Source: an uncultured Clostridia bacterium (lineage in GTDB: Bacteria > Bacillota > Clostridia > TANB77 > CAG-508). From it: a DNA stretch of 64,000 nt. This document shows positions 1,650 to 60,364 of the stretch, in pieces. The notes under the pieces are model-generated. The model had not been told where the DNA came from. It did no database searches and saw only the letters and a program-made list of their open reading frames with translations. Position numbers and translations under genes: made by a program. Every line of letters starts with the position of its first letter. The stretch's first letter is position 1. The DNA is taken from the NCBI GenBank assembly GCA_904419495.1, contig CAJFRV010000012.1, positions 7,133 through 71,132 of the forward strand. Direction: 5' to 3'.

Positions 1650-1821
1650 GTTCTATTGCCTAAGGGGATATATATTATATTTTTAAGCGAGTTTCGTGGG
1701 GACCGACACACTACATATTCTTAATAAATCAGTGACAGCACCGTGGGAACTGATTTAGTTAGAATATGTAAAGTGTTGGGATAGCGTAAAATATAATATA
1801 TATCCCCTTAGGCAATAGAAC
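1650..1821. repeat. Foldback element, family 1, copy 1 (33-bp perfect outer stem, conserved asymmetric core)
   Basis: gttctattgcctaaggggatatatattatattt (1650-1682) is the exact reverse complement of aaatataatatatatccccttaggcaatagaac (1789-1821). The inner core GTTTCGTGGGGACCGACAC ... GTGTTGGGATAGCG is shared with the copy at 11315-11497. It lies between divergently transcribed genes. Confidence 0.9.
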
Positions 1822-1929
1822 ATTAAAATAGTAAAATTAAAAGCTTATATCTTTTGGATTGAAATTTAACTTGCTAAATGTTTATAAATGGTATACAATA
1901 CAATCACTTATTATTTTAAGGAGTTATAT

Positions 1930-3522
1930 ATGTTACGAATTCAAAATATAAAAATACGAAAAAATATTTCTGATGAGGCACTGATTCATTTCGTTTTAAA
2001 GACATATCATATTAGCCCTTCAGATGTTATTGATTGGCATATTGTAAAAAAGTCTATCGATGCTAGAAAAAAGACAGATGTTCACTTTCAATATACAATT
2101 GATATCCATGTAAAAGATGAAAATAAATACCCACATGTTCAAAAAACAAAAACTACAGATATTGAAAATACAATAAATCCTAATATGCTTGTTTCTTTAA
2201 AATCAGAACCTTCTCCCGTCATTATTGGAGCAGGTCCTGCTGGATTATTTTCGGCTTTAACCTTTATCCAAAATGGTATTTCTCCCATTATTATTGAACA
2301 AGGAAAAACAGTAGAAGATAGAAAAAAAGATGTTGATAATTTTTTACACCACAAAATTTTAAATTGTTCATCAAATGTGCAATTTGGTGAAGGTGGTGCT
2401 GGTACTTTCTCTGACGGCAAATTAACGACTGGAATTCACAATCCTTTATGTCAAAAAGTTTTAAAAGAATTTGTTCATTTTGGAGCTCCTGAAGAAATTT
2501 TATACCTATCAAAACCGCATATTGGAACAGATAAGTTAATTCATGTCATCCAAAACATGAGAAACTATATATTGTCAAAAGGTGGAACTTTTCATTTTAA
2601 TACAAAATTTATTAACTTTACGATTAAAGATAATAGGATACATTCGGTATTATTAAAAAACTTAGAGAACAACACCATTTTTGAGATACCAGCTACAAGA
2701 TTAATTTTAGCTATTGGTCATAGTTCAAGAGATACTTTTGAATTGTTATATCAAAATGGTATTCATATGGAAAAGAAAAATTTTTCTGTTGGTGTTAGAA
2801 TTGAACATCTACAAAAAGCAATTAATTCAGCACAATATGGTGAAATAACAAATTTAAAACTACCTCCTGCTGAATACAAATTGGCCTATCATTCTTCTTC
2901 TGGTCGTTCTTGCTATACGTTTTGTATGTGTCCGGGTGGAACAGTTATCGCCTCTTCCAGTGAAAAACATACGATTGTTACAAATGGTATGAGTAATTAT
3001 TTAAGAAATGGTACAAATGCAAATTCTGCCTTACTTGTAAATGTAACACCTGAAGACTTTATTGATACTTCTCCTTTAGCAGGTATCTATTTTCAAAAAA
3101 ATTTAGAAGAAAAAGCTTTTGTATTAGGAGGCTCAAACTATCATGCACCTGTTCAAAAAGTAGAAGATTTCTTAAAAAACAGAAAATCTTCTTGTATTGG
3201 TTCTATTATTCCTTCTTATCTACCCGGCTACACTTTGTCTAATTTAAATGATATTCTTCCAGAATTTGTTTCTACTACATTAAAGGAAGGTATTTTATAT
3301 TTTGACAAAAAATTAAAAGGATTTGCTAATCCAGATAGTATATTAACAGGTGTTGAAACAAGAAGCTCCTCTCCTGTCAAAATACCTAGAGATATAAATT
3401 GCATATCAAATGTAGATGGGATCTATCCTTGTGGTGAAGGTGCTGGATATGCAGGTGGTATCATGTCTGCTGCTGTAGATGGAATACATACAAGTTTATC
3501 AATTTTAAGGACTATTCACTAG
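1930..3522 (+). CDS. FAD-dependent oxidoreductase (COG2509-type uncharacterised FAD-dependent dehydrogenase)
   Basis: ORF track 1888..3522. I place the start at ATG 1930 (MLRIQNIKI...), which sits 6 nt after AAGGAG at 1918-1923. Dinucleotide-binding motif VIIGAGPAGLFSAL; C-terminal GIYPCGEGAGYAGGI typical of this family. Confidence 0.75.
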   Translation: MLRIQNIKIRKNISDEALIHFVLKTYHISPSDVIDWHIVKKSIDARKKTDVHFQYTIDIHVKDENKYPHVQKTKTTDIENTINPNMLVSLKSEPSPVIIGAGPAGLFSALTFIQNGISPIIIEQGKTVEDRKKDVDNFLHHKILNCSSNVQFGEGGAGTFSDGKLTTGIHNPLCQKVLKEFVHFGAPEEILYLSKPHIGTDKLIHVIQNMRNYILSKGGTFHFNTKFINFTIKDNRIHSVLLKNLENNTIFEIPATRLILAIGHSSRDTFELLYQNGIHMEKKNFSVGVRIEHLQKAINSAQYGEITNLKLPPAEYKLAYHSSSGRSCYTFCMCPGGTVIASSSEKHTIVTNGMSNYLRNGTNANSALLVNVTPEDFIDTSPLAGIYFQKNLEEKAFVLGGSNYHAPVQKVEDFLKNRKSSCIGSIIPSYLPGYTLSNLNDILPEFVSTTLKEGILYFDKKLKGFANPDSILTGVETRSSSPVKIPRDINCISNVDGIYPCGEGAGYAGGIMSAAVDGIHTSLSILRTIH

Positions 3523-4657
3523 TCCTTATTTCTTTTATAATTTCTGTTAAACTTTCCACCAGATAGTTTATATCTTCTTTTGTGTTATCTTCTCCTAATG
3601 TAACTCTTAATGTTCCTTCTGCATATTCACTTGGCAATCCAATTGCTGTTAATACATGTGATGGTGAACCACTTCCAGAGGAACATGCACTTCCTGCAGA
3701 AGCACATATTCCTCTTTCATCTAATTTCATTAATAATTCATTACCATTTACTCCTTTAAAAGATATGTTACTATTTCCCGGAAGTCTCTTTTCCATAGAT
3801 CCATTTATTTGAATATCCACTATTTCATCTTTTATTCTAGAAATATATTCATCTCTTAGCTCAGTTAGTTGCTTGATATGTTCTTCCATATTTTCTTTTG
3901 CAATCTTGCAAGCTTCCCCTAGTCCTATCATTCCGGGTACATTTTCTGTTCCAGCTCTCTTATCTCTTTCTTGATGTCCACCATCTATAAATTTTTTAAA
4001 TTCTATTGATTTATTAACATACAAAGCCCCAATGCCTTTTGGTGCACCTATCTTGTGTCCTGATAATGATAACATATCAATCTTCATCTTTTTTACATCA
4101 ATTTCTACATTTCCACATGCTTGAACTGCATCTGTATGAAAAATAATTCCTCTTTTATTAGCTATTTCTCCAATTCTTTCAATTGGCTGTATAGATCCAA
4201 TTTCATTATTTGCGAACATAATACTAAGTAATACTGTATCTTTTCTAATAGCATTATTTAATTCTTCTAGTTCTATAATTCCTTCTTTATTAACATTTAG
4301 ATATGTTATTTGATAGCCTTCTTCCTCTAATCTTTCACAAGTATGTAATATTGCAGGATGTTCTATTTTCGTGGTTATCATATGTTTTCCTTTATTCTTT
4401 TCTAGATGCATAATTCCTTTTAACGCTGTATTATCACTTTCTGTTCCTCCACTCGTAAAAATAATTTCATTTCTATCACAATTAATTAAATTTGCCACAT
4501 TTTTCCTTGCCTCTTCTACCCCCACCCTTGCAATTCTTCCTAGTTTGTACAATGATGATGGATTTCCATATTGCTCCACAAAATATGGAAACATTTTATC
4601 TAATACCTCTTTCTTTACCCTTGTTGTTGCTGCATGGTCAAAATATCTCATTTTCAT
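3512..4657 (-). CDS. nifS: Cysteine desulfurase, NifS/IscS class V aminotransferase
   Basis: 381 aa. Motifs YFDHAATT, PLP-lysine region SLSGHKIGAPKGIGALY, and the active-site Cys loop ASAGSACSSGS. Confidence 0.85.
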   Translation of the reverse strand: MKMRYFDHAATTRVKKEVLDKMFPYFVEQYGNPSSLYKLGRIARVGVEEARKNVANLINCDRNEIIFTSGGTESDNTALKGIMHLEKNKGKHMITTKIEHPAILHTCERLEEEGYQITYLNVNKEGIIELEELNNAIRKDTVLLSIMFANNEIGSIQPIERIGEIANKRGIIFHTDAVQACGNVEIDVKKMKIDMLSLSGHKIGAPKGIGALYVNKSIEFKKFIDGGHQERDKRAGTENVPGMIGLGEACKIAKENMEEHIKQLTELRDEYISRIKDEIVDIQINGSMEKRLPGNSNISFKGVNGNELLMKLDERGICASAGSACSSGSGSPSHVLTAIGLPSEYAEGTLRVTLGEDNTKEDINYLVESLTEIIKEIRTSE

Positions 4658-4697
4658 TTTCTTCTCTCCTCAAAAAATCTTCTTATCCAATTTTATG

Positions 4698-5552
4698 CTA
4701 TTTCTCATAGATTATTTCCTTAATTTTATCAATTTGATTAACTGTTTCTACATATCCATATTGATAACAACTATCTAATTTTTTTACATCTAGTAATCCC
4801 ATCCTATCTGTCCCAATAGTTAAAATATAATCGCTTTGTTTTAAATTTTCCTCTGATATTTTATTTCCCATTAAATCAATTGCTCTCATAGCAATATCCA
4901 TATAATTACTAGTGTCTTCTATATCATCTGCCTTAAAATTAACGGCCAATACTTTATCAATTCCTTGTTTCTTTACTTCTATTACTGGTATATTATTTAA
5001 TGCTCCTCCATCTAAAAATTTATGTTCTCCAAAATCACATGGGCAAAAAACAGCTGGAAAACTACTACTAGCTCTTAATGCTTTTCCTACGCTAATATCC
5101 ATTATATATTTTCCATAAACATTTTTTTCTTCTGGTATACGGTTTGTAAAAATATATTCTCTGCCATTTTTTATATCTACCGCTGGTATAGATATCGGTA
5201 TTTTATCTACCTGTGAAATTTTATATACTCCTTTTGCTTTTGCTAATGTATTAAAAATATCTTCTATTTTCTCTCCATTTCTTAATCCTGAACTTTCCTT
5301 ATTAAAAATATTGCGTACTTGATAAATAATTTGATTTAGACCCGTACCAACAATTTGTTTTGAATGTTTTTTAAATAACATATAGATATCATCTGGTGTA
5401 TATCCTAATACATATAATCCTGCAATAAGAGCTCCCGAACTTGTTCCTCCTATGGCATCTATTTTTATATGATTATCTTCTAACGCTTTTAATACACCAG
5501 CATGTGCAATTCCTCTAATTCCTCCACCTGACAAAGCTAATCCTAGTTTCAC
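4698..5552 (-). CDS. Patatin-like phospholipase
   Basis: 284 aa. Oxyanion motif GLALSGGGIRG, nucleophile elbow GTSSGA, and a DGG catalytic Asp motif (KFLDGGALNN). Confidence 0.85.
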   Translation of the reverse strand: MKLGLALSGGGIRGIAHAGVLKALEDNHIKIDAIGGTSSGALIAGLYVLGYTPDDIYMLFKKHSKQIVGTGLNQIIYQVRNIFNKESSGLRNGEKIEDIFNTLAKAKGVYKISQVDKIPISIPAVDIKNGREYIFTNRIPEEKNVYGKYIMDISVGKALRASSSFPAVFCPCDFGEHKFLDGGALNNIPVIEVKKQGIDKVLAVNFKADDIEDTSNYMDIAMRAIDLMGNKISEENLKQSDYILTIGTDRMGLLDVKKLDSCYQYGYVETVNQIDKIKEIIYEK

Positions 5553-5636
5553 CTTTTCACCTTTTCTCTTTTTATTTTTTATAGTATTTACAATTTGATA
5601 TATTTTTAATCATTTAAATATTTTGTTCTATACAAG

Positions 5637-5813
5637 GACAAATCTCGCTTCGTGAGAACTTTTTTCTACTTTTTTAATTTAACTATATATATTTAAGTTC
5701 TCGAAGAAGCGTAAAGATTTGTCGAGGCGAAAAATTGCTATACAATTTTTCTGTACAATGTTATTTTTTTATTGAATAGGAAAAATCGCTTTTTCCTATT
5801 CAATAAAAAAATA
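5637..5813. repeat. Composite intergenic repeat, family 2, copy A (hairpin module, conserved linker, bidirectional terminator hairpin)
   Basis: gacaaatctcgcttcgtgagaac...gttctcgaagaagcgtaaagatttgtc hairpin, then ...caatttttctgtacaa..., then ttattgaataggaaaaatcgctttttcctattcaataa. The same architecture occurs at 19228-19402, and the 3' half alone at 61311-61390. Confidence 0.85.
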
Positions 5814-9177: not shown

Positions 9178-9181
9178 TATA

Positions 9182-11128: not shown

Positions 11129-11314
11129 CTGTTTTCTCTCCTTAAAAATAATTTTTTATGCTTGTTTGGATTTTTTATTCGAATAAAATAATTGATTAAA
11201 TTTTTTAAATCTTGAACTAAAAAGTATAGTACTATATATACATAGTAATACATTTTTTCCCATTTGTAAAGAAGTTTTCATCGCAAAATTCGACATTCAT
11301 AATAGTTACAGTTC

Positions 11315-11497
11315 AACATTCTCACTAAGAGGGGCTATATATAAATTATATTTTAAGCGGGTTTCGTGGGGACCGACACGATACATATTGTTCATAAATC
11401 AGTGACTGCCTGCAGAAACTGATTTATCTACAATATGTAAAGTGTTGGGATAGCGAAAAATATAATTTATATATAGCCCCTCTTAGTGAGAAATGTT
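11315..11497. repeat. Foldback element, family 1, copy 2
   Basis: ctcactaagaggggctatatataaattatattt (11321-11353) is the exact reverse complement of aaatataatttatatatagcccctcttagtgag (11458-11490). The core GTTTCGTGGGGACCGACAC ... GTGTTGGGATAGCG is the same as in copy 1. Confidence 0.9.
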
Positions 11498-11501
11498 AAA
11501 C

Positions 11502-18159: not shown

Positions 18160-18261
18160 TGTATTACCTCCTCTCCTAAAATATTTCATATAACTATACA
18201 TAATTATATTATTCGACGTATTTTACATAAATCCTTCTACTTGTCAAAAAAAATGTCTGAT

Positions 18262-18428
18262 TGATGATTTTGGGTGTCAAGAGGCAGAGCGATGATTTTG
18301 GGGACGGAGCAAAAAATCATCATTTATTCTATAAAAAATTTTATAAAAGAATCTTTATAGAAATGATGATTTTTTGCTCCGTCCCTCCCCAAAATCATCG
18401 CTCTGCCTCTTGACACCCAAAATCATTA
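18262..18428. repeat. Foldback element, family 3 (arms of ~65 nt, near perfect)
   Basis: The left arm gatgattttgggtgtcaagaggcagagcgatgattttggggacggagcaaaaaatcatcattt pairs with aaatgatgattttttgctccgtccctccccaaaatcatcgctctgcctcttgacacccaaaatcat. There is one small bulge (ccct). Confidence 0.9.
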
Positions 18429-18436
18429 ATTGGATA

Positions 18437-19227: not shown

Positions 19228-19402
19228 GACAAATCTCGCTTATCGAGAACTTTTCTCGTCTTTTCTAATTTAACTATATGTATTTAAGTTCTCGATGAAG
19301 CGTAAAGATTTGTCGACGCAAAAAAATGCATAGCAATTTTTCTGTGCAACATTATTTTTTATTGAATAGAAAAAATTTATTTTCCTTTTCAATAAAAAAA
19401 TA
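19228..19402. repeat. Composite intergenic repeat, family 2, copy B
   Basis: gacaaatctcgcttatcgagaac...gttctcgatgaagcgtaaagatttgtc, then caatttttctgtgcaac, then ttattgaatagaaaaaatttattttccttttcaataa. Collinear with 5637-5813. Confidence 0.85.
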
Positions 19403-19418: not shown

Positions 19419-20798
19419 TTACCTAGGGTCATCTCCCCATTCTGCTTTTTTGACTTTTGGTGTATCTTCTACTTTTACTATTTTTGACTTTTCTGCCATT
19501 TCTACTATTTTTCTTGTCCTTTGTTCTAACGAATGATTGATAGTCCCCAACAATTTTTTTCTCATAGTAGATGGAACTTTTCCTAGATTTTTTATAAATC
19601 CAGATTCTATACAATCTCTAATAGCTTTTATTTCTTCTGTTCCTAATGTTGATAAATCAAATCTTTCCTTTTGTTTTGTTTCCTGTTTTTCTATAACTTT
19701 ATTTTCTTTTATACTCTCAGAATTTGCTTTCTTTGGTTCAACCTCTAAATTTCTACTATCCTCTTGGTTTACTTTTAAACTAGGGATATATTCTTGACTT
19801 TCTTCTATTTCTCCTTTAGCAATTCTCATTATATTTTCTACTTCTCTAGTCTCTATGCCTAAATTTGTAAATTCATTTTCTAGATAACTTGCTTCTTGGT
19901 CTGTTAGTTGACCCAAGTTTTTCATGAAAACATTAACACTTCTATTTTCTTTTTTGGCATCTCCCACTACTTTTTTTGCCATTCGAGTTAGAAAAAATTT
20001 CTTAACTGCTATTACATTAATTGGTTTCTTTTTTCCATTGCTTAATTTTCTTTTTTCTTTAGTTTTCGATTTTACAATTCGTTTATCTTGATATTCTTCT
20101 GCTACACGCTGTGGAATTTTTTCTCTTATCATTTCATCAATTGGTACAATTGCCTCCATCGGAGATATTCTGATAGAACCATCAAATTCACAATACTGGA
20201 TTGCAAAAGCTCTTGCTATTGTTTTATATAATTCCTCCTTAATTCTACTTGTTCTTTCTATATCTACTTTTTCTAAACAATCTTGTAATTTCTGTACGAT
20301 ATCTTGTTGTGATTGGAAGTCCTTTAATGATTTATATAATTCTTCTAATTCCTTGCAAATTGCATCCTCTTTTTTTTCCTCATCTTCTAATGAATTAATA
20401 GCCTCCATTCTAATTGCTCTAGAAGATATTCCTTCATTTTGTAAAATATCTATAGTTGTATCATCAGATGCTTGCTTTACTAACGTTCCTGTTACGTTAT
20501 CAGGAACATCAGAACTTTCTGCTGCTATTTGAGCAGATGTATCAATTACAGCTTGTGAAATTTCATCAGACTTCACAGCCTCTTGCACAAGTGCCTGTTG
20601 CATTTCTGGATTTTTTTGTAATGCATTTACAAGATTTTCTGCCTGTTTTTCTCTGATTTCTTCTTCTGATAATTGTTGGTCTTCTGTTGGTTGAATAACT
20701 TGATCTTTAATTATTTCTGCTAGTGTGTTTTCTTTATTTTCATCTGCTAGTCCTCGTAATTTTCCTTGAACTTTTTCACCTATATTTTTTAACTTCAT
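19419..20798 (-). CDS. Hypothetical protein, highly charged (E/K/Q-rich), no recognisable domain
   Basis: 459 aa, no TM or signal sequence and no motif I recognise. It starts 6 nt after the adhE stop on the same strand. A hairpin terminator (aaaagccgatttggctttt) follows directly after its stop. Confidence 0.5.
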   Translation of the reverse strand: MKLKNIGEKVQGKLRGLADENKENTLAEIIKDQVIQPTEDQQLSEEEIREKQAENLVNALQKNPEMQQALVQEAVKSDEISQAVIDTSAQIAAESSDVPDNVTGTLVKQASDDTTIDILQNEGISSRAIRMEAINSLEDEEKKEDAICKELEELYKSLKDFQSQQDIVQKLQDCLEKVDIERTSRIKEELYKTIARAFAIQYCEFDGSIRISPMEAIVPIDEMIREKIPQRVAEEYQDKRIVKSKTKEKRKLSNGKKKPINVIAVKKFFLTRMAKKVVGDAKKENRSVNVFMKNLGQLTDQEASYLENEFTNLGIETREVENIMRIAKGEIEESQEYIPSLKVNQEDSRNLEVEPKKANSESIKENKVIEKQETKQKERFDLSTLGTEEIKAIRDCIESGFIKNLGKVPSTMRKKLLGTINHSLEQRTRKIVEMAEKSKIVKVEDTPKVKKAEWGDDPR

Positions 20799-28652: not shown

Positions 28653-28946
28653 TGTCCAATTGGGGACGTTTCTATTTGGGACATTTTTATGTAAAGTTTC
28701 ATCTATAAAAATACTATATAATAAAAATTTATTACATTCCTCGGCTAACATTACATCATAAAGAAAAATTAAAGGTATCTAATAGGCACCTCTCAAAATC
28801 AAGTTTTGAGATTCTCCTATTAGATACCTTAATTTTTTCTAATATGATTTCATTCACATTCGTCATTTCATAAATTTTTATTATATAGTATTTTTATGCT
28901 AAATTATATTTTAAATGTCCCAAACAGAAACGTCCCCAATTGGACA
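28653..28946. mobile_element. MITE-like foldback element, family 4, long copy (conserved inverted termini TGTCCAATTGGGGACGTTTCT...)
   Basis: Left end tgtccaattggggacgtttctatttgggacattt; right end aaatgtcccaaacagaaacgtccccaattggaca. It carries nested internal palindromes (aaggtatctaatagg...cctattagatacctt). It fills the whole gap between the convergent stops of pflA (28652) and ORF 28950. Confidence 0.8.
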
Positions 28947-28949: not shown

Positions 28950-29885
28950 TTACATTCCTAATAATTTTAATTCTATATTTTCCATTTTGTATTTTCCATC
29001 AACTAATTTGAATTCTACTAGTGTATCTTCTAAAGTTTCTTTATTTTGTCTTAAATCTGTTGTAAAGTATAATTTAATTTGAGAAATTTCTAATTGATTT
29101 GCTACTATTTCTTTAAATGTTTCAGCCATATGTTTTTCATCTTCACAAATTAGAATTAATTGTGGCATACCACTAAATCCGGAATCTCCCGGAACATAAT
29201 TTTCATAAAATTCCTTATATAGTCTCATTCTTTCAACTAATTTCTTTTTCCAATCTGGTTCTCTTCTAATAACTTCAAACACAAATTGAATTGATTTTCC
29301 GTTTTTTGTAAGTTTAACTGCTCCACCACTTGCCTTAAATAACTTTCCTGAAACTTTTGCAGTTATCGCTGGTTTTACAATATAACTGTCAAATGCTTTT
29401 ACTTTTCTTAAATAAGCAATTAAAGTTTGATTTCCAGCCAATCTTTTTTTAATCATTGGTACTGGTTTTGTATTATCTGATGGTTGCCATTTACAATCAA
29501 TTTCTTTAGAATTCAATAAATATTTTCCCATTTTTTCTAAACAGTAAATTCTATAAATTCCTTTTCCTTCATCAGAAGTAAAATAATATCTTGTTAAAAT
29601 TTTAGACTTTACTAGTTGATCTAATTTATTATTCAATTTATCTTGTGATTTTGGATCAATTCCTTTTATTTCAAGCATTTGATACAATTGTCTTGATGTA
29701 ATAAATTCAAATTCATTTACTAAGTCTAAAATTGCAAAATGGATTTCATTAATATGTCCAATATTAATCTTATGTACGATTTGATTCATTGACACATACC
29801 CATCTTTTCCATCAAAAGTTTTTATTTCACCTTCTCTTATGGCAAATGGAGATACTTGTGCCTTGATTTCATTATCTTCTACCAT
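28950..29885 (-). CDS. Hypothetical protein, possibly replication-relaxation (Replic_Relax)-like with a winged-helix N-terminal region
   Basis: 311 aa. RBS GGGGGA. The pattern HFAILDLVNEFEFITSRQLYQMLE...LDQLVKSKILTRYYF...GIYRIYCLEKMGKYLL resembles the wHTH-plus-'YxL..G' pattern of plasmid Replic_Relax proteins. This is recalled from memory only. Confidence 0.35.
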   Translation of the reverse strand: MVEDNEIKAQVSPFAIREGEIKTFDGKDGYVSMNQIVHKINIGHINEIHFAILDLVNEFEFITSRQLYQMLEIKGIDPKSQDKLNNKLDQLVKSKILTRYYFTSDEGKGIYRIYCLEKMGKYLLNSKEIDCKWQPSDNTKPVPMIKKRLAGNQTLIAYLRKVKAFDSYIVKPAITAKVSGKLFKASGGAVKLTKNGKSIQFVFEVIRREPDWKKKLVERMRLYKEFYENYVPGDSGFSGMPQLILICEDEKHMAETFKEIVANQLEISQIKLYFTTDLRQNKETLEDTLVEFKLVDGKYKMENIELKLLGM

Positions 29886-36688: not shown

Positions 36689-36931
36689 ATGTATTTAAGT
36701 ATGGCTGTAAGAAAAAGAATTTATGAACTTTGTGATGAAAGAAATATAACCATTAATAGACTTTGTACAATTTCTGGTATTACACAATCTACTCTTGCCA
36801 ATATCAATTCTAGGCAAAATGCAAATTTGAACATCTTGACTATTATGAGAATATGTAGAGGACTTAATATTACTTTACAAGATTTTTTTAATTCGTCTAT
36901 CTTTAATATTGATAGTTTAGAAGATGACTAA
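36689..36931 (+). CDS. XRE-family HTH regulator (small)
   Basis: 80 aa: RKRIYELCDERNITINRLCTISGITQSTLANINS. Typical HTH_3/HTH_26 pattern. Confidence 0.75.
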   Translation: MYLSMAVRKRIYELCDERNITINRLCTISGITQSTLANINSRQNANLNILTIMRICRGLNITLQDFFNSSIFNIDSLEDD

Positions 36932-37617: not shown

Positions 37618-38103
37618 ATGAATAACGAAATTCACAACAATATTAAAGAATCTGAAAAAATTTTACAAAATATTAATACTACTGATACTCTTGAATTTTC
37701 AAAATGGACCAAAGAAAAAGTTAATTTAAGATACAATGCTGAATTACCTATTTTTCCAATATATAATAATTTTATTTATTGGTGTAATTTGGGAATAAAT
37801 ATCGGAAGTGAACAAAATAAATTAAGACCTGTTCTGATACTAAGAAGTTCAAAGAATTCAACAATTTGTACTATTCTTCCTTTAACTTCTAAAAGATTAA
37901 ATGATAATTTTTGGTTTCATATTGATTTAGAAAAAATCAACTCTACAATTTTAGTAGAACAACTAAAAGTTATTAGCAAATTAAGACTCACCAATCCTTA
38001 TAGAAAAAATGGAAATTTAGTTACTATTTCACAAAACGATTGGAGGAATATAAATTCCCAACTTGAAACCTTATATAGATTACGACCATTAAAAAATGAA
38101 TAA
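37618..38103 (+). CDS. PemK/MazF-family toxin-like endoribonuclease with a ~50-aa N-terminal extension; no adjacent antitoxin ORF
   Basis: 161 aa. RBS GAGGTGA. FIYWCNLGINIGSEQNKLRPVLILRSSKNSTICTILPLTSK matches the MazF/PemK core (GdIyw.dfg...GsEq.g.RPvlVvs......s..vivaPlTs). Confidence 0.7.
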   Translation: MNNEIHNNIKESEKILQNINTTDTLEFSKWTKEKVNLRYNAELPIFPIYNNFIYWCNLGINIGSEQNKLRPVLILRSSKNSTICTILPLTSKRLNDNFWFHIDLEKINSTILVEQLKVISKLRLTNPYRKNGNLVTISQNDWRNINSQLETLYRLRPLKNE

Positions 38104-47783: not shown

Positions 47784-47963
47784 GTTTTTCACCTCGCTTT
47801 GCATTCTATCATTTTTTATTTTTTATTTCAAGTGAAAATCCCCTTGCTATAAATTGGCTAAATATCTAGCAAATCTTTATGAATTCGTAATTTTCTCTTG
47901 AATCTCGTGCCTTTTTGTTATATAATACGGCTTATATAACATTTGAAAGGACTGATTAGAAGC

Positions 47964-50205
47964 ATGAGTTATAACTTTAAAGAAATTGAAAAAAAATGGC
48001 AAGATAAATGGTATGCTGAAGGAACATTTAATGCAAAAGATGACTTCACAATGAAAAAATGGTTTGGATTAATCGAATTTCCATATCCATCAGGTCAAGG
48101 ACTTCACGTAGGACACCCTAGAAGTTATACTGCATTAGATATCATTGCAAGAAAGAGAAGAATGCAAGGATATAATGTATTATTCCCTATTGGATTTGAT
48201 GCCTTTGGATTACCAGCTGAAAATTATGCCATTAAAAATCATATTCATCCAAAAATCACTACTGAAAAAAATGTTAATCATTTTAGAGAACAATTGAAGT
48301 CAATTGGTTTTTCTTTTGATTGGTCAAGAGAAATTAATACAACTGACCCAGAATATTATAAATGGACACAATGGATTTTTATTCAATTATACAAACATGG
48401 ATTGGCATATAAAGCAACAATGCCTATTAAATGATGTAGATTATTTAGATAAAATTAAAGCTCAACAAAAAAATTGGATTGGTCGTTCTGAAGGTGCAGA
48501 AGTTACCTTTAAAATTGCTGGTTCTGATGAAACTTTAACAGTTTATACAACAAGACCAGATACCTTATTTGGTGCTACCTATATGGTTGTTGCTCCTGAA
48601 CATCACATAATTGACAAACTTTCTGATAGAATTACCAATATGGATGAAATTGAAGATTATAAACATCAAGCTTCTTTAAAATCTGATTTTGAAAGATCAG
48701 AACTAAATAAAGAAAAAACGGGTTGTGAAATAAAAGGAATTAAAGCCATTAATCCATTAACAAATGAAGAAATTCCTATCTGGATTTCTGATTATGTTTT
48801 AATTAGTTATGGTACTGGTAGCATTATGGCTGTACCCGGACATGATACACGTGATCATGAATTTGCAAAAAAATTCCATTTACCAATTGTTCAAGTTATT
48901 AAACCTGTTGATGAAACAATTAAATGTGATATTGATAAAGAAGCTTTTACAGATGTCGAAACTGGTATCTTAATCAATTCAGGATTTTTAAATGGTTTAC
49001 CTGTTGTAGATGCTAAGAAAAAAGTAATTGAATTTTTGGAAAGTAATCACATTGGTAAAGAACAAGTAAATTATAAATTACGTGATTGGGTATTTTCTAG
49101 ACAACGTTATTGGGGTGAACCAATCCCTATGGTTTATTGTGAAAAATGTGGTTGGGTTCCTGAAGTTGAAGATTATGAACCAAGTGAAAATGGTGAATCA
49201 CCTCTTGCAAGACATACAGAATGGGTAAATACCACTTGTCCTCATTGTGGTGGAAAAGCCAAAAGAGAAACAGATACAATGCCTCAATGGGCTGGTTCTT
49301 CTTGGTATTATCTAAGATATATGGATGCACACAATGATAAAGCTTTAGCCTCAAAAGAAGCATTAGAATACTGGTCACCTGTTGATTGGTATAATGGTGG
49401 TATGGAGCATACAACACTTCACTTACTATATTCAAGATTTTGGCATAAATTCTTATATGATATTGGTATCGTTCCAACAAAAGAGCCTTATCAAAAACGT
49501 ACCTCTCATGGAATGATTCTTGGAAGCAATGGAGAAAAAATGTCCAAATCTAAGGGTAATGTTGTTAATCCAGATGATATTGTTAATGAATTTGGTGCAG
49601 ATGCCTTTAGAGTTTATGAAATGTTTATGGGACCTTTTGATCAAACAGCTCCATGGTCTATGGAAAGTATTAGAGGTTGTGCAAAATTCTTAGATAGAGT
49701 TTGGAATCTTCAGACTTTATTAGTAGATGGCGAAGAATATTCTCCAAAATTTGAGAAAGAAATGCATAGAGCTATTAAAAAAGTATCTTCTGATATTGAA
49801 GAAATGAAATTTAATACATCTGTTTCAACCTTTATGACTCTAGTAAACGATTTTTACAAAGAAAAAACAATTAATAAAGCAGAATTTAAAACCTTTTTAC
49901 AACTGTTAAATCCTTTTGCACCACATATGACAGAAGAACTTTGGCAAACTGTATTAGGTGGCACAGAAATGCTAGCATATATGGAATGGCCTAAATATGA
50001 TGAAGAAAAGACCATTGCAGATGAAATTACTTTACCAATTCAATTTAATGGTAAATTAAAAGCAACGATTACGATTTCTTTAGATGAAGCTGAAGAAAGT
50101 GTTAAAGAAAAAGTGCATAAAGCTGTTAGTGATAAATTAGAGGATAAAACGATTGTAAAAGAAATTTATGTTAAAAATAAAATTTATAATATTGTTGTGA
50201 AATAA
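47964..50205 (+). pseudogene. leuS: Leucyl-tRNA synthetase, reading frame broken at 48429-48434 and apparently lacking the segment between the PxNW and NWIGRS motifs
   Basis: ORF 47943..48434 carries the N-terminus with the HIGH motif ([13 protein letters not shown]) and ends ...[13 protein letters not shown] 48304..50205, in the +1 frame, continues ...[27 protein letters not shown], then the CP1 editing domain ([12 protein letters not shown]), KMSKS (EKMSKSKGN) and the C-terminal domain. Confidence 0.8.
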
Positions 50206-50927: not shown

Positions 50928-52031
50928 ATGAGTATTAAATCTGATTTAAAAAAGGATGGAATTGAAGTAATACAAAAACTTGATACTTTAAAAATAAATT
51001 CTATTGCTAAAAATATTGCTTCAAAGCTATGTCAAACATTTCCTTCATATGGATTAAATGAAAATGAGTTATTTATAAAATTATCTAGATTGGATATGTA
51101 TAGAGCTAAGATGCCTGAAGGAATGGCAGAAGCCAATTACTATTACAAAAATACGTCCATTTATTTTAATGAACACATTCCTGAAGAGGATATGGAAGAA
51201 TTTGCTATCCATGAATGTATCCATTATCTTCAAGAAATAAAAGATAAAAGAAACTACTTACTAAAAATGGGATTATGTGATTATACAGAATTTAAAATCT
51301 ATGGATTAGGTTTGAACGAAGCAGCTGTCCAATTAATGTCTTCAAAAGTCATTGGTATTCCTAAAGACTATGTAAAATACTTTGGAATTAGTTTCGAAAC
51401 AACAAGTCCTTCTTATTATCCTTTAGAATGTTGTTTAGTAAATCAGTTAGCTTTCATTACAGGTGAAGATGTTTTATTTAAGAGTACATTAAATAGTGAT
51501 GACAATTTTAAAATAAAATTCTCTCAATTAACTTCACCAAAAGCCTTTATGTCTATTCAAAACGCAATTGATGATATTCTTTTTGCAGAGGAAGATATTA
51601 TTAAATTAAACAATAAAATTGCCTTAGTTGAAGACAGAAATAAAAAAGTCGATGATATGGTTAAGAAAATTGATGATTTAAAAGAAAAAATAAAATTAAC
51701 GTTTTTAAGAACTCAAAATCTAATTATCTCTAGTTATTTTGATAAAGCTTTTATAAATATAACCAACTTAGAAGAGTTGGAAAATTATAGAAAAAAATTG
51801 TATGATATAAAATCTTATTTAGGATTCTCTGAAGGATATACTTTTTTTAATGATTATTATGTTGAGAAAATGTCCCAATTAGAACACAAATATAATATAC
51901 TAGAAAATGGTGGTATAGAAACTGCTATTAATATTCAGACCAAAACAGAAAGTAAATTTATAACTTTATTCAAAACCATTAAAAAATTCCTTTTAGGAAA
52001 ATCTTCGGAATCTCAAAAAAACGATATATAA
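50928..52031 (+). CDS. Hypothetical protein with an HExxH motif (putative zinc metallopeptidase)
   Basis: 367 aa. RBS AAGGAGA. FAIHECIHYLQE contains HECIH, and the C-terminal half looks helical/coiled. I recognise no other family signature. Confidence 0.4.
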   Translation: MSIKSDLKKDGIEVIQKLDTLKINSIAKNIASKLCQTFPSYGLNENELFIKLSRLDMYRAKMPEGMAEANYYYKNTSIYFNEHIPEEDMEEFAIHECIHYLQEIKDKRNYLLKMGLCDYTEFKIYGLGLNEAAVQLMSSKVIGIPKDYVKYFGISFETTSPSYYPLECCLVNQLAFITGEDVLFKSTLNSDDNFKIKFSQLTSPKAFMSIQNAIDDILFAEEDIIKLNNKIALVEDRNKKVDDMVKKIDDLKEKIKLTFLRTQNLIISSYFDKAFINITNLEELENYRKKLYDIKSYLGFSEGYTFFNDYYVEKMSQLEHKYNILENGGIETAINIQTKTESKFITLFKTIKKFLLGKSSESQKNDI

Positions 52032-52102
52032 AAATGAAGATACAATCTTTCTGATTTAGAGAATAATATGTGCGAATGAAAGAACATTATAAATTGTTGC
52101 AT

Positions 52103-52151
52103 AAAAAAGTAGGAGAATCTCAAACTTGCTTTGAGATTCTCCTACTTTTTT
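52103..52151. terminator. Bidirectional hairpin terminator
   Basis: aaaaaagtaggagaatctcaaa-cttgc-tttgagattctcctactttttt, between convergent genes 50928..52031 and 52217..53476. Confidence 0.8.
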
Positions 52152-52216
52152 ATGTTAGAATTTATTTGGACTGTAATGTTAGCCATATTATTCTCTAAAT
52201 CAGAAAGATTATATCT

Positions 52217-53476
52217 TCATTTTGCTATATTTTTTATCATACATTTTGCTGCTTCTCTTCCCGAATTTGCAGCCCATGCAACAGTTCCTTTTATTCCTGC
52301 CAAGTCCCCTCCAGAATAAATTTTAGGATTAGAAGTTCTATATTCTTCATCTATCTGTATGTTTCCCCATTTATTTAATTCCAATCCTAAATCTTTTACA
52401 TACTGTTGTGGTTTTGATCCTAATGCCATAACAATATAGTCTACATCTACTTGATAATTACTATTTTCAATATTGACAGGAGACAACCTGCTTTCTCCTT
52501 CTTTTTGAACTAACTTTGTTTTAATTAATTCTACACTTTCTACTTTTTTATCTCCTAATATCCTAACAATATTATTTTGAAAAGCAAATTTCACCCCTTC
52601 TGCTTTGGCATCTGCTATTTCCTTTTTTTCTGCTGGCATTTGTTCCTCTGCTCTTCTATAAACTACTGTTACCGTTTCTGCTCCTAATTTATTAATTGTT
52701 CTAGCACAATCCATTGCCACATTTCCTCCACCTGTAACAATTACTTTCTTGCCCTTATAATTAGGATGTAAATTATATTCTAATAATTCATTTCCTCCAT
52801 AAACACCTTCTAAGTTTTCTCCTTCAACTCCCATTTTAGAAGAACAATTTGCACCAATACTTAAAAATATTGCATCATATTCATTTTCTATGTCTTTCAA
52901 TGTAAAATCTTTTCCAAGTTCTTGACAATATTTTACTTCTATTCCTAAATCCAAAATATCTCTTACTGTATTTTCTACAATTTCTTTTGGTAGTCTAAAA
53001 TCTGGTATCCCGAACATTAGCAATCCACCTAAATAATCATATTTTTCATATATGGTTACTTTGATACCTTCTTTAGCTAAAAAAGCTGCACAAGTTAGTC
53101 CTGCTGGTCCTCCTCCGATTACTGATACTTTTTTATGTATCTTTTCTTCCTTTTGATAACAATCTGATAAATGATATCCTAATTCATGTGCTTTATCAAA
53201 TGCATATGCTTCTAATTCTCCTATTGAAACAGCTTCTCCTTTTATACCTCTTACGCATGAACCTTGACATTGCTTTTCATGAGGACAAATTCTTCCACAT
53301 ACTCCCGGTAAAACTGTTGTTTCTGATAAAATTTTGTAAGCAGAAAAATATTCTTCTTTTTTTAAAGCTTGAATAAAATCTGGTATTTGGTTATTCAACG
53401 GGCATCCTTTTAGAGAACATGGTTTTACTTTACAGTTCAAACAATAATTTACTTTTTCTTCTACTTCTTTTATCAC
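52217..53476 (-). CDS. GltD/NfnB-like NAD(P)H-dependent oxidoreductase (glutamate synthase small-subunit family, 2x[4Fe-4S] plus FAD/NAD)
   Basis: 419 aa. N-terminal Cys clusters CLNCKVKPC...GCP and CGRICPHEKQCQGSC. Dinucleotide folds VIGGGPAGLTCA and VTGGGNVAMDCA. Confidence 0.8.
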   Translation of the reverse strand: MIKEVEEKVNYCLNCKVKPCSLKGCPLNNQIPDFIQALKKEEYFSAYKILSETTVLPGVCGRICPHEKQCQGSCVRGIKGEAVSIGELEAYAFDKAHELGYHLSDCYQKEEKIHKKVSVIGGGPAGLTCAAFLAKEGIKVTIYEKYDYLGGLLMFGIPDFRLPKEIVENTVRDILDLGIEVKYCQELGKDFTLKDIENEYDAIFLSIGANCSSKMGVEGENLEGVYGGNELLEYNLHPNYKGKKVIVTGGGNVAMDCARTINKLGAETVTVVYRRAEEQMPAEKKEIADAKAEGVKFAFQNNIVRILGDKKVESVELIKTKLVQKEGESRLSPVNIENSNYQVDVDYIVMALGSKPQQYVKDLGLELNKWGNIQIDEEYRTSNPKIYSGGDLAGIKGTVAWAANSGREAAKCMIKNIAK

Positions 53477-53659: not shown

Positions 53660-53910
53660 AACATATGTCACAGTTTAAACTAAATACTTGGGGACAAATA
53701 TATAATATAAATAAATGAAATAAATTTGCGTATCTAAATTTGAAGTTAGAAAGAACCAATAAAAATGTGAGGAATGTTCATTTTTAATGAAAGAGTCTCA
53801 CATTTTTATTGTGTTATTTCTACGAAAATTTAGCTTATACAAATTTGTGAATGATTTTATATTATATATTTGTCCCCAAGTATTTAGTCTGAACTGTAAC
53901 TAACATATTG
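53660..53910. repeat. Foldback element, family 5 (arms of ~110 nt)
   Basis: The left arm cacagtttaaactaaatacttggggacaaatatataatataaa... pairs with ...tttatattatatatttgtccccaagtatttagtctgaactgta. The outer ~40 nt are essentially perfect and the inner part is imperfect. The apical mini-hairpin is ttcatttttaatgaa. Confidence 0.9.
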
Positions 53911-56797: not shown

Positions 56798-56829
56798 CTA
56801 AAACCTCCTTTTTCTTTTGTGTCCTTTCT

Positions 56830-59800: not shown

Positions 59801-60189
59801 GTAATTCCATGTTTCTTTAATTCTGTAATACTTTGAATTCCAATTTCTATGTTCTCATCACTTTTCCCTAAAAATTGAAAATTATTTTGATTTTTAGACA
59901 ATATAGAATAAATTAGCATTGCTTTTCCACATTTTGATAAACTAGTTTTATTTCTTCCCCCAATTTCATTTAATGCTCTATTTGCCATTCTACTAAAAGT
60001 AATTACCTCTGCATTCATAACTGCCTTTTCTTTTAAAAATTCCATTAAATTCTTCTCTGCTGTAAATGAAAATTGTTCTGGAGTAATGTAATATATGTTT
60101 TCTTCTTTTTCTATTAAATTTGCTATTTCTGAAAAACACAAACTACTTTTTCCTGTTCCTGTTTTTCCATAAATAATTCTCAAGCTCAT
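56830..60189 (-). CDS. addB: Helicase-exonuclease AddAB, subunit AddB
   Basis: 1119 aa. N-terminal Walker A IIYGKTGTGKSS. C-terminal RecB-type nuclease with Fe-S cysteines (KCPFSYYLQYG ... CEYCEYKSIC). Confidence 0.9.
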   Translation of the reverse strand: MSLRIIYGKTGTGKSSLCFSEIANLIEKEENIYYITPEQFSFTAEKNLMEFLKEKAVMNAEVITFSRMANRALNEIGGRNKTSLSKCGKAMLIYSILSKNQNNFQFLGKSDENIEIGIQSITELKKHGITLDILDKEIQNLEDKYLKTKLEDIRLIYQNYEEQISQNYIEETDLLDYLAKNIENLDWIKNGIIYIDEFSGFTAQEYEIIKQFIKYAKQVNITMCIDNLEMETNPDTDVFYSNKQTLKKLIRIIDENHFKLEEPVNLEKQYRLKNQELQALSQNLLSTKSTKYEKNVENIHLFLAKNRYSEIENVAKTICKMIREKNLRYKDMAIITKNIDMYSSLVRSIFAKYDIPVFIDEKRDLNQNIIVQYALSIFEIFTNNYTNEAMFNYIKLGFLDIEDDEIFRLENYCTKWGIKRNKWKEDFKYEMDDESKKQEIERLNEIRKQIIEPLMSLRKKIDKEKTAINITKQIYTFLQEQHIEEKISQKVKWLEENGLIDLANEYVESYNIILEVLDEIVLVFQEDKVTIDTYSQILKIGLKNSELGKIPATQDQVTLGDVDRTRSHKVDVVFVIGLNDGVFPSVNKDEGFLNDADRERLKNDGMELANGTLENLYEENFNIYKVLTTAEQEMYLSYASSDGDGKALRPSILIHKIKKIFPKLEEQSDVIHKKYEIVNQDITYEELLEKLYQLKNKEDIANLWYAVYDWYKQNPKWNTRLEQDMEGLTYTNVPKKLKKENMDKLYGNTLHTSVSRLEQYRKCPFSYYLQYGLKVKPKDELKIQSFNTGSFMHETIDEFFKYVHGNDLNLAELEEIDIQKIVSKIIDEDLELSKNHIFKATVKYKILVRRLKKIVSKALKYIIQTLIYSDFTIKGTEVEFDKKGEYKPIQLELEDGKRIEITGKIDRIDIAKEEDGNYLRIIDYKSSSKNVDLNEVYAGLQIQLLTYADAVCKEEDLIPAGIFYFSLLEQMIKADKKISDEEIEELIRKNFKMKGLIVADVKIIKMNDNSLTTGTSKMVPAAISKSGEVIEKWTNGVKQEEFSILQKYIYQTIKEIGKEIFDGNIDLKPYYKEGKTPCEYCEYKSICTFDPRRKENTYQYIHKLTKDDIMIKMKRKIKG

Positions 60190-60205
60190 AAATTTTCTCC
60201 TTTAC

Positions 60206-60364
60206 TGTCCAATTGGGGACGTTTCTTTTTGAGACATTTTTATGTAAAGTAAACTTTAATAAACTGTCTCTTAAGTAAATACTAAAAATTTAATTAATTA
60301 TTTTTATAAACATGAGAACACTTTACATAAAAATGTCTCAAAAAGAAACGTCCCCAATTGGACA
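60206..60364. mobile_element. MITE-like foldback element, family 4, short copy
   Basis: tgtccaattggggacgtttctttttgagacatttttatgtaaagt ... actttacataaaaatgtctcaaaaagaaacgtccccaattggaca. It abuts the ogg stop (60365) and lies 16 nt upstream of the addB start. Confidence 0.85.

Follow-up and report, generated by a model that had tools for sequence, protein, structure and literature searches.

A TGGGGAC hairpin repeat in uncultured gut Clostridia and its probable relation to a REPtron/TIRtron-type Y1 transposase locus

The known systems closest to the repeats described here include the TIRtrons and their transposases, the TIRYTs. Di Nocera et al. 2013 (PMC3733652) describe a GGGGWSAS motif in the terminal inverted repeats (TIRs) of TIRtrons and, in some cases, dispersed TIR families. 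TIRYTs are taken to correspond to TnpAY1 subclass 2.1 (Quentin et al. 2018, PMC6006769) and to RAYT Group 1 (Bertels et al. 2017, PMC5581495), whose proteins carry C-terminal HTH domains and occur in Clostridia (PMC6006769, PMC5581495). Quentin et al. did not find REP-like sequences in the neighborhood of subclass 2.1 genes (PMC6006769), and ~ 12 occurrences of flanking 16-mers were reported for Group 1 (PMC5581495).

Here, we analyze a 64-kb stretch of DNA from an uncultured Clostridia bacterium (“the window”, meaning all 64,000 nucleotides), in which the initial annotation had linked four families of intergenic foldbacks through the heptamer TGGGGAC. Comparison with related genomes indicates that a hairpin repeat containing TGGGGAC has spread through a group of uncultured gut Clostridia. 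With a probability of roughly two in three, we read TGGGGAC as the core of a REP-like unit that is the TIR of a REPtron/TIRtron-type Y1 locus, with families 4 and 3 as doublets or variants of this unit and the other families as mosaics. Repeat and Y1 gene together add a further case to a type of system that is already known and do not establish a new one.

Recurrence of the heptamer in intergenic foldbacks

Counting both strands, TGGGGAC has 10 matches in the window, whereas 100 dinucleotide-preserving shuffles of the window gave an expectation of 1.18 (sd 1.10, maximum 5), in line with the earlier rough estimate of about one occurrence by chance against at least nine seen. Nine of the 10 matches lie inside six intergenic foldbacks that total 1218 nt, or 1.9% of the window. 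The nine coordinates originally listed for TGGGGAC or its complement GTCCCCA are all exact. One further match had been missed, on the minus strand at 19543-19549; it falls inside ORF 19419-20798(-), where it reads ..LLGTINH.., so the heptamer is not “always” inside hairpin arms, as had been claimed. This coding occurrence is a background match of the sort that chance predicts. TGGGGAC is among the top three enriched 7-mers of the window, and the other two, TCCGGGT and TCCCGGT, are coding Pro-Gly contexts and not repeats.

Arms and copies have their sequence in common, so the nine foldback matches are not independent, and we treat them as four family-level events. This smaller number is the one point in favor of a compositional or chance effect, which is nonetheless hardly conceivable: none of the 100 shuffles reached 10 matches, and in related genomes the motif is carried by hundreds of hairpin modules while coding matches stay at about the chance level.

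Hairpin units and the elements of families 4 and 3

TGGGGAC itself is only the most frequent version of a longer motif, TT[G/A]GGGACG[T/G], placed in the loop of a ~ 31-nt hairpin unit with the prototype TGTCC-AATTGGGGACGTTTCTGTTTG-GGACA. Unit stems are AT-rich and 5–9 bp long, and the invariant sequence occupies a 14–21-nt loop. Stems of at least 7 bp surround 37% of heptamers versus 4% of random positions, and the local hairpins fold as single-stranded DNA with -3 to -9.5 kcal/mol (z -1.7 to -3.4). Stems vary in a compensatory manner while the loop is unchanged (TGTCC/GGACA, ATGTCG/CGACAT, ATGTCTC/GAGACAT, TGTCCAGG/CCTGGACA, a flipped GGGACA/TGTCCC, and GTGCA/TGCAC at the L182 transposase locus), and the same loop motif is also found on other hairpin modules. 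A minority of units, among them the upstream one at P0007, are stemless (GGGACAATT...TTTGGACA), so the hairpin is not obligatory.

Family 4b (60206-60364) consists of two hairpin units in inverted orientation, separated by a 97-nt spacer, and thus forms a REPIN/MITE-like doublet; it lies in the gap that separates the stop codon of OGG from the ribosome-binding site of AddB. Its plus-strand unit, TGTCC-AATTGGGGACGTTTCTTTTTGA-GACA (60206-60236), has the heptamer at 60214-60220 and an inverted partner at 60334-60364. The termini of the element read TGTCC...GGACA with no target duplication at its ends, and it is also found in contig L001, which is 100% identical. Family 4a (28653-28946) sits precisely between the stop codons of two convergent genes, with inverted units at 28653-28683 and 28916-28946 around a nested palindromic core (28705-28897); its interior is 95–96% identical to the interiors of elements in L042 and L037. 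Exact copies of the 19-nt family-4 terminus occur at no fewer than 110 loci in at least 33 Clostridia MAG assemblies, with several assemblies holding at least 12–15 arms and the highest value being at least 15. The 39 complete elements (64–501 nt) all end sharply in TGTCC...GGACA, and the shortest consist of nothing but two units and a spacer. For heptamer-bearing elements, no clean pair of empty and filled sites was obtained.

Perfect TIRs, sharp TGT...ACA-type ends, and varied interiors would also fit ordinary MITEs that arose by deletion from a parent DDE insertion sequence (IS) with TGGGGAC-containing TIRs (TGTCCAATTGGGGAC...) and are moved by its transposase through cut-and-paste, and an IS30-type transposase does lie just beyond the window in the identical contig L001. 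We consider this origin very unlikely, as a target-site duplication is found in none of the 39 complete copies, the ends of the IS30 element lack the motif, and solo units are common. Furthermore, there is no transposase ORF between or beside the arms among the ~ 110 loci listed and no multi-copy ORF was found; the sole unit-bracketed gene found is of the Y1/HUH type and occupies a fixed place in the chromosome.

The family-3 foldback (18260-18430) contains the unit GATGATTT-TGGGGACGGAGCAAA-AAATCATC at 18291-18321, and its single-stranded DNA hairpin folds with -5.6 kcal/mol (z -2.2). The bulged gtccctcccca noted earlier in its second arm is real: the partner arm at 18365-18399 has a 4-nt insertion (GGGGAGGGAC). 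Relatives of family 3 in L044, L110, and L079 carry TTAGGGACGGAG at the heptamer position, and partner arms of family 4 that were not selected for the heptamer show TTAGGGACG, TTGGAGACG, and the like; the conserved determinant is not the heptamer in its exact form.

The position of these elements relative to genes invites another explanation. Among solo type-1 units, 13 of 14 lie 0–12 nt 3' of a same-strand stop codon, are followed by a T-run, and end in CCCTTTTT, and the family-4 elements of the window lie between stop codons or between a stop codon and the next ribosome-binding site. The motif could therefore act mainly in RNA, as a loop on terminator or 3'-end hairpins that is bound by a protein or used for processing and is selected at gene ends, with the Y1 link incidental; that REPs act as RNA elements is reported by Di Nocera et al. 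(PMC3733652). As a main explanation we think this unlikely. The 19-nt terminus is identical across the assemblies that carry it while the flanks are unrelated, which argues for copying and not for convergent selection. Paired units are symmetric, so that half of them would be antisense to any transcript, and in six species the Y1 gene has kept units at both flanks, their stems co-varying. An RNA-level role is compatible with the REP-like reading as a secondary function.

Mosaic foldbacks and the heptamer in families 1 and 5

Family 1a (1643-1828) has an asymmetric core at 1681-1791 (heptamer 1697-1703) and GTTAC-type outer arms. Family 1b (11305-11501) has the same core at 11351-11460 (heptamer 11367-11373), and its GTTAC-type arms (GTTACAGTTCAACATTCTCACTAAGAGGGGC...) differ from those of 1a and are perfectly self-complementary. 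In family 5 (53667-53900), GTTAC-type arms at 53667-53695 and 53872-53900, ending in TTGGGGAC / GTCCCCAA, enclose a conserved ~ 176-nt core (53696-53871). Families 1b and 5 are fixed in all sampled strains. The initial annotation saw a “modular superfamily” in the likeness between family-1 outer stems and family-5 arms, and this likeness is real, with the terminus GTTACAGTTCA common to both. Its description of the four families as otherwise unrelated does not hold: the family-5 core has its homologs in the interiors of family-4 composites from other MAGs (L023, L049, L070, L120, L062, L079), and the family-4a interior contains the central hairpin of a heptamer-less foldback at 52019-52235. The “families” are mosaics with common arms and cores, not unrelated elements. 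The foldback at 52019-52235, which is present or absent among strains, sits inside the loop of a terminator hairpin, with the empty site in L131 and L134 reading AAGATACAATC-ggaaa-GATTGTATCTT; this insertion shows how nested foldbacks originate.

In neither family 1 nor family 5 is the exact heptamer conserved, so these two families may depend on something else. At its position, 16 of 22 independent family-1 cores have GGGGGGAC, in which the G-run forms a 5-nt loop on a GTCGG/CCGAC stem, a different context; the local mini-hairpin of the family-1a version in the window is unstable. The family-5 heptamer lies in a variable arm segment, where homologous GTTAC-type arms read AAGGT, AATAC, or TGTGA for GGGGAC. 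These observations count against the proposal that one factor recognizes the same heptamer in all four families, as do the arm ends of families 1 and 5 (GTTAC...GTAAC versus TGTCC...GGACA), which are not seen beside the Y1 gene. Arguing for it, T precedes 10 of 11 GGGGAC occurrences in this genome, the heptamer is present in both family-1 copies and both family-5 arms, and a G/C-rich 7-mer is very unlikely to turn up in four elements by chance. On balance, recognition by a single factor appears plausible where families 4 and 3 are concerned and doubtful in the case of 1 and 5, and one factor acting across all four seems quite unlikely.

A Y1 transposase locus in relatives and its known counterparts

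The window encodes no Y1/RAYT-type enzyme, as had been stated. In six related species, however, inverted units bracket a single-copy Y1/HUH transposase gene (L060, L101, L167, L175, L180, L182), an arrangement seen down to 53% Y1 protein identity; the bracketing units are of the family-4 type and carry TTGGGGACG. This layout is that of a REPtron/TIRtron, and the earlier guess of a REP/BIME-RAYT parallel is therefore supported for families 4 and 3, but not as stated for families 1 and 5. The link between Y1 gene and repeat comes from these relatives, through flanking association.

The Y1 proteins (~ 256–262 aa) match Pfam Y1_Tnp with E-values of 1e-15 to 1e-17, contain the motifs NHVHL and YIHQNPvKAG, and have a C-terminal extension ending in an HTH-like segment. 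Their best NCBIfam match is REP-associated tyrosine transposase, at 69–74 bits (below the RAYT equivalog cut-off of 80 bits) versus 20–25 bits for IS200, and their sole PDB sequence match is TnpAREP (4ER8). radA is directly downstream of the gene in six of six cases. A small ORF precedes it in four of the six (P0007, P0036, P0077, P0115), three of which have a radical-SAM gene upstream; mreB and disA are also nearby at P0007 and P0036. The L180 flank, CTGGGGACAC, is an exact GGGGWSAS match, of which the window has none.

In the reading that we favor, the unit would be, in genomes related to this one within a single uncultured lineage of low-GC Clostridia, the TIR of a locus of the REPtron/TIRtron type, where a Y1 (HUH) gene of the RAYT/TIRYT kind is present in one copy, fixed beside radA with inverted units on either side. 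Two inverted units and a short spacer would make the REPIN/MITE-like doublets of family 4, and the same loop on different stems would make unit variants such as family 3 and the terminator-like solo units elsewhere. By analogy with E. coli TnpAREP and IS200/IS605 TnpA, the enzyme may bind the folded single-stranded unit, cleave it, and rejoin it, which would copy units and doublets to new intergenic sites, mostly just past stop codons, without target duplication. Other palindromic cores would then invade the centers of palindromic doublets and ordinary terminator hairpins, giving mosaics that were read as separate families (family 5, family 4a, and probably family 1). Counting against this reading are the absence of the enzyme and of an exact GGGGWSAS from the window, protein scores under the equivalog cut-off, the missing GT[AG]G foot of classical REPs, the stemless minority of units, the lack of a clean empty and filled pair for heptamer-bearing elements, and the poor conservation of the heptamer in families 1 and 5.

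With MITEs of DDE-type IS (such as Correia/NEMIS and RUP), the elements share terminal inverted repeats, a size of 60–500 nt, variable interiors, intergenic location, and effects on 3' ends. In contrast to these MITEs, they have neither target-site duplications nor a parent IS with such ends; their solo ends look functional, and the associated gene is an HUH Y1 gene at a fixed locus. With IS200/IS605 elements and their PATE derivatives, the points in common are the enzyme superfamily (Y1 HUH), ends that are recognized as folded single strands, and insertion that leaves no duplication. However, IS200/IS605 has asymmetric ends, which carry their two hairpins on one strand and form no terminal inverted repeats, whereas the ends here are inverted; the IS200/IS605 gene is multi-copy and mobile, whereas the Y1 gene here is syntenic and single-copy and scores poorly with the IS200 model.

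REP/BIME/REPIN repeats, such as those of E. coli and Pseudomonas fluorescens, are likewise short imperfect-palindrome units, single or in inverted doublets that form long hairpins, intergenic and often just past stop codons, mosaic, and without target duplication. As in REPtrons with a RAYT (TnpAREP), the Y1 gene is present once and has its own repeats on either side, and the best database matches are RAYT/TnpAREP. Unlike classical REPs, the units have no GT[AG]G tetranucleotide at the 5' foot, keep their invariant sequence in the loop, and have short, AT-rich stems; unlike RAYTs, the protein scores under the equivalog cut-off and has an additional C-terminal domain. With TIRtrons, the locus shares a single-copy, RAYT-like Y1/HUH gene of similar kind with an HTH-like C-terminal end (a candidate for subclass 2.1), flanking inverted repeats that are long and GGGG(A)(C)-rich, repeat copies scattered both as monomers and as dimers, and the exact GGGGWSAS of the L180 flank. 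It differs in that the dispersed repeat, GGGGACG(T/G), matches only the first six of eight positions of GGGGWSAS, in the placement of the motif in a hairpin loop whose stem co-varies, and in a dispersal wider than the ~ 12 flanking-16-mer occurrences of Group 1, reaching at least 33 assemblies and at least 12–15 arms in several of them.

The heptamer and its hairpin unit

The recurrence of TGGGGAC is confirmed: the heptamer has 10 matches on the two strands of the window, against 1.18 expected from dinucleotide-preserving shuffles (0 of 100 shuffles reach 10), a figure close to the single chance copy reckoned in the initial annotation. Nine of the matches, all at exactly the coordinates first reported, lie inside six intergenic foldbacks that make up 1218 nt, or 1.9% of the window. 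The tenth (19543-19549, minus strand) is in frame within the ORF at 19419-20798 and is a chance-level background copy; the earlier statement of at least nine copies, always in hairpin arms, thus stands for the number but not for "always". Because arms and copies repeat one sequence, the nine foldback matches reduce to four family-level events.

In an unbiased k-mer scan, TGGGGAC was among the top three enriched 7-mers of the window. Two other top 7-mers, TCCGGGT and TCCCGGT, each ~13-fold above second-order Markov expectation, were ruled out as repeats, as every copy is coding and falls in a Pro-Gly codon context (window positions 2931, 3932, 10211, 18725, 22755, 22491, 34776, 34884, 53303, 54332 and others). 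Scans of the window against Rfam (gathering thresholds) and for tRNA/tmRNA gave no matches. A small repeat family that does not carry the heptamer is formed by three near-identical copies of a terminator-like palindrome (5762-5813, 19355-19399 and 61347-61390; TTTTTTATTGAATAGGAAAAA / TTTTTCCTATTCAATAAAAAAA). The window is ~27% G+C with most genes on the minus strand, and amid these a Cro/C1-type HTH protein (36689-36931) and a PemK/MazF-type toxin (37618-38103) lie on the plus strand. The leucyl-tRNA synthetase frame is apparently split into overlapping plus-strand ORFs of 163 and 633 aa (47943-48434 and 48304-50205), which could reflect a frameshift, a sequencing error or a programmed event.

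Modules that contain the heptamer have a common build, in which a short local stem of variable sequence surrounds a 14-21-nt loop starting (T)TGGGGACG(G/T). Examples are TGTCC-AATTGGGGACGTTTCTGTTTG-GGACA, which is the family-4 end, AGGGA-TTTTGGGGACGGACTCATTTT-TCCCT, TGTCAA-TGGGGACGGAGATT-TTGACA, GGAACG-TTGGGGACGTGCCAAAT-CGTTCC, and GATGATTT-TGGGGACGGAGCAAA-AAATCATC, which is the unit of family 3 (18260-18430) in the window. Folded as single-stranded DNA, the units reach -3 to -9.5 kcal/mol (z -1.7 to -3.4), and stemless units are a minority. Compensated stem variants leave the loop unchanged (ATGTCG/CGACAT, ATGTCTC/GAGACAT, TGTCCAGG/CCTGGACA and the flipped GGGACA/TGTCCC). What stays constant is not the exact heptamer: family-4 partner arms outside the search selection read TTAGGGACG, TTGGAGACG or TTGAGGACG, and family-3 relatives read TTAGGGACGGAG at its position. 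The conserved core of the unit is [G/A]GGGACG. Units start with (A)TGTCC and place their invariant part, TTGGGGACG, in the loop, which may be the recognition determinant.

To follow the unit beyond the window, we scanned a single genome of each species for the 19-nt terminus of family 4 (TCCAATTGGGGACGTTTCT) and recovered at least 110 loci in at least 33 assemblies. Among the matches listed, all loci come from MAGs labelled uncultured Clostridia, Clostridium sp., Eubacteriales or Bacillota, with ~28% G+C. The maximum per assembly is at least 15 exact 19-mer arms, and five assemblies have at least 12-15. The window itself is 100% identical to a metagenome contig (ERZ28573849 scaffold_292), and sister species were recovered at ~87% and ~79% identity. 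The 825 kb of family-4-terminus loci hold 243 heptamers, ~175 in family-4 arms (which the search pattern selects for), ~45 in further small modules between genes and about a dozen in coding sequence. As for the comparison of copies inside and outside hairpins that the initial annotation had proposed, the coding copies are at about chance level, and local stems of at least 7 bp occur at 37% of heptamers versus 4% of random positions.

Family-4 elements and mosaic foldbacks

The 39 complete family-4 elements range from 64 to 501 nt, have sharp TGTCC...GGACA termini and often directly abut a stop codon; none of the 39 has a target-site duplication. The shortest (64-104 nt) consist of two inverted units and a short AT spacer and are therefore REPIN-like doublets, and the longer ones hold nested palindromic cores. 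In the window, family-4 elements (4a, 28653-28946; 4b, 60206-60364) occupy the space between convergent stop codons or from a stop codon to the next ribosome-binding site, and 13 of 14 solo type-1 units lie 0-12 nt past a same-strand stop codon and are followed by CCCTTTTT. Given these positions, the elements likely have a secondary function as terminators or at 3' ends, as has been suggested for REPs.

We found no transposase between or beside the family-4 arms at the at least 110 loci, and clustering of 1016 ORFs (~0.9 Mb) yielded no multi-copy transposase or other multi-copy gene. Three candidate sources were rejected. At L087, a relative's locus with arms 2.1 kb apart, the supposed autonomous element encloses infC and a membrane protein and resolves into two separate elements. 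At the OGG-AddB site (window 60190-60364), a two-gene cassette, encoding a 348-aa protein that has internal repeats and a 149-aa one, replaces family 4b in two strains (L002 4472-6239, and L003); it has no terminal repeats and is an alternative allele, neither a parent nor a clean empty site, and Pfam gave no match for either protein. An IS30-type transposase (429 aa, HTH_38) lies just past window position 64000 (737-2026 of L001, the identical contig); its own inverted ends (AACTTTACTTGGGTA) do not contain GGGGAC, and it was dismissed as a source. A marginal match to Replic_Relax (replication-relaxation), 27.5 bits for a cut-off of 25.3, hints that the ORF abutting family 4a (28950-29885, minus strand) is what is left of an old mobile element. 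The unit architecture with its compensated stems and the spread across MAGs are shown directly, as is the lack of target duplications in the 39 complete elements and of a parent IS at the at least 110 loci.

The initial annotation treated the four foldback families as otherwise unrelated and linked by one heptamer-reading factor. Its observation that the outer stems of family 1 (1643-1828 and 11305-11501) resemble the arm of family 5 (53667-53900) proved apt: they are one arm type, with termini GTTAC(A/T)(G/A)TTCA. In six other MAGs, composite family-4 elements have an interior homologous to the family-5 core, which is flanked there by type-1 units and family-4 ends, and a central hairpin is common to the family-4a interior and to a foldback at 52019-52235 that has no heptamer. 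Since cores and arms are common to several families, the "families" are mosaics of these parts, not otherwise unrelated elements.

A single reader of the heptamer for all four families fares no better. When metagenomes were searched with the family-1 block minus its heptamer, 16 of the 22 cores recovered had ...GGGGGGACCGAC where the heptamer would lie, and the other six had GTTTCGTGGGGACCGAC. There a GTCGG/CCGAC stem carries the G-run as its 5-nt loop, and the window's family-1 version has no stable fold. In family 5, the position of TTGGGGAC is occupied by AAGGT, AATAC or TGTGA in homologous arms. A family-1 core with the heptamer also appears in a viral-collection contig (L141 2221-2239, IMGVR_UViG_3300032231_000131).

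GTTAC-type arms (window 1643-1828 and 11305-11501; relatives' loci L146, L151, L156 and L162) have conserved termini but diverge strongly among copies in their middle ~20 nt, and both arms within each copy are 90-98% complementary, a pattern suggestive of arms that evolve in concert or of a stem under selection. In a sister species (L163 and L166 versus L144, L147, L149 and L152-L154) the arms of the family-1 element are of two types, A and B, and the asymmetric core is found in both orientations with respect to them, which suggests that the core inverts or inserts independently.

One hairpin-loop insertion can be seen directly. The foldback at 52019-52235 is absent from two strains (L131 and L134, 4740-4800), where a plain terminator hairpin, AAGATACAATC-ggaaa-GATTGTATCTT, with a T-run makes up the empty site; the filled site carries a 154-nt palindrome precisely within the loop of that hairpin. 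Insertion at hairpin tips explains why outer stems vary among copies yet stay self-complementary, and repeated entry of palindromic cores into such tips would produce nested foldbacks. Families 1b (11305-11501) and 5 yielded no empty sites, as the strains with identical flanking proteins all carry the element, and the family-3 site in the sister species at L146 has unalignable sequence.

A Y1 transposase gene bracketed by the units

The initial annotation had drawn a parallel with REP elements and their RAYT enzymes, while noting that the window encodes no such enzyme. That absence was borne out: among the ten unclear ORFs of the window, Pfam detected no HUH protein, transposase or TnpB-type protein. 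A low-stringency tblastn search of the window and the relatives' loci with three Y1 transposase queries matched ORFs in two relatives, L060 and L101. Their proteins are 259-262 aa long, carry the motifs NHVHL (HUH) and YIHQNPvKAG (catalytic Tyr) and match Pfam Y1_Tnp at E 1e-15 to 1e-17. The C-terminal extension of ~120 aa ends in a weakly HTH-like segment, with weak matches only to HTH_3/HTH_26 (E 0.003-0.1) and none to Bac_DnaA_C, HTH_23 or HTH_28. The only PDB sequence match is 4ER8 (E. coli TnpAREP), and public sources hold no names for these proteins. At E <= 1e-10 the protein family counts 642 members, many of them on ~1-kb contigs, which fits a gene lying between assembly-breaking repeats.

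Inverted family-4-type units bracket the Y1 gene in six of six species (L060, L101, and the loci of proteins P0007, P0036, P0077 and P0115, that is, L167, L175, L180 and L182). At L182 the flanking stems are GTGCA/TGCAC instead of TGTCC/GGACA, and the loop, TTGGGGACGTTTC, is the same. In all six, at protein identities down to 53%, radA lies immediately downstream of the Y1 gene; a small ORF precedes the Y1 gene in four, three of which have a radical-SAM gene upstream, and mreB and disA are also present at the P0007 and P0036 loci. This conserved radA-adjoining context argues that the gene would be a single, vertically inherited locus, with a fixed chromosomal context unlike that of an insertion sequence. 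Assemblies with a detected Y1 locus have at least 1-3 exact 19-mer arms among the matches listed. At L101, a foldback (3420-3620) lies between the Y1 gene and the upstream unit, with family-1-like inner arms (ATATATTTTTAAGC...) and a different core.

The search for a Y1/HUH gene suggested at the outset, run on relatives, thus found a RAYT-like one in a conserved, unit-bracketed locus, and with REP-associated tyrosine transposase as its best NCBIfam match the REP/RAYT analogy was right. The claim of one heptamer-reading factor for four unrelated families is not borne out, which leaves the original interpretation partly supported. The window's own genome may carry the gene as well. By analogy with TnpAREP and IS200/IS605 TnpA, the enzyme may mobilise the units through binding, cleavage and rejoining of the single-stranded repeat.

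Relation to known systems

The most far-reaching interpretation, to which we give a probability of only about 0.3, is that a TIRYT-type (RAYT Group 1-like) Y1 enzyme of gut Clostridia actively spreads REPIN-like doublets, recognising the loop TTGGGGACG on a freely co-varying stem, and that these hairpins and ordinary terminators serve as landing pads, with unrelated palindromic cores inserting precisely at their tips to build a hierarchical nested-foldback mosaic. In characterised RAYT-REP pairs, the GTAG foot is read. If true, no active TIRYT-repeat system would have been described from Firmicutes before this one, and its recognition logic would be different. The repeat and the Y1 gene occur in gut Clostridia of a widespread, uncultured group, and co-varying stems, an invariant loop and one chromosomal locus kept over deep divergence offer defined substrates for recognition tests. 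In practice, the units break metagenome assemblies and mark gene 3' ends, and nested palindromes could pass for several unrelated repeat families.

What RAYT Group 1 or TIRYT proteins do is unsettled (PMC6006769, PMC5581495), and the units described here are a clear repeat family linked to such a gene. Di Nocera et al. (PMC3733652) gave the names TIRYTs and TIRtrons to RAYT-like genes flanked by terminal inverted repeats, and reported that many TIRs have a GGGGWSAS motif in common and that certain species contain dispersed TIR families of moderate abundance. For Quentin et al. (PMC6006769), TIRYTs are the same as TnpAY1 subclass 2.1 (C-terminal HTH domains) and as Bertels' RAYT Group 1; their large survey found no REP-like sequences near subclass 2.1 genes. 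Bertels et al. (PMC5581495) place Group 1 in Clostridia too, with flanking 16-mers of modest abundance (~12 occurrences). The Y1 proteins described here probably belong to subclass 2.1. The motif strings of our units, searched in the full-text literature, matched only unrelated primers.

The system can be set against several known kinds of element. MITEs of DDE transposases are set apart by the lack of target-site duplications in the 39 complete family-4 copies and of a full-length parent IS with these termini among at least 110 loci. IS200/IS605 PATEs have asymmetric ends, with both subterminal hairpins on one strand and no TIRs, whereas the ends here are perfect inverted repeats. The Y1 proteins of L060 and L101 are closer to RAYT/TnpAREP than to IS200 transposases (69.4 and 74.4 bits with the NCBIfam model REP_Tyr_transpos, versus 20-25 bits with the IS200 model), although both fall under the 80-bit equivalog cut-off. 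Classical REPs carry a 5' tetranucleotide foot, GT[AG]G, which the units here lack, having instead the invariant TTGGGGACG in the loop. The TIRtron motif GGGGWSAS has no exact match in the window, where units GGGGACGT/GGGGACGG agree at 6 of 8 positions; exact matches are confined to the second module of some Y1 loci, as in the L180 flank (CTGGGGACAC; other Y1 loci read TGGGACAC), and to some dispersed variants (TTGGGGACACATCT). As in REPtrons and TIRtrons, the Y1 gene is bracketed by inverted copies of a dispersed repeat. The system belongs to this known kind, as a new member from uncultured gut Clostridia.
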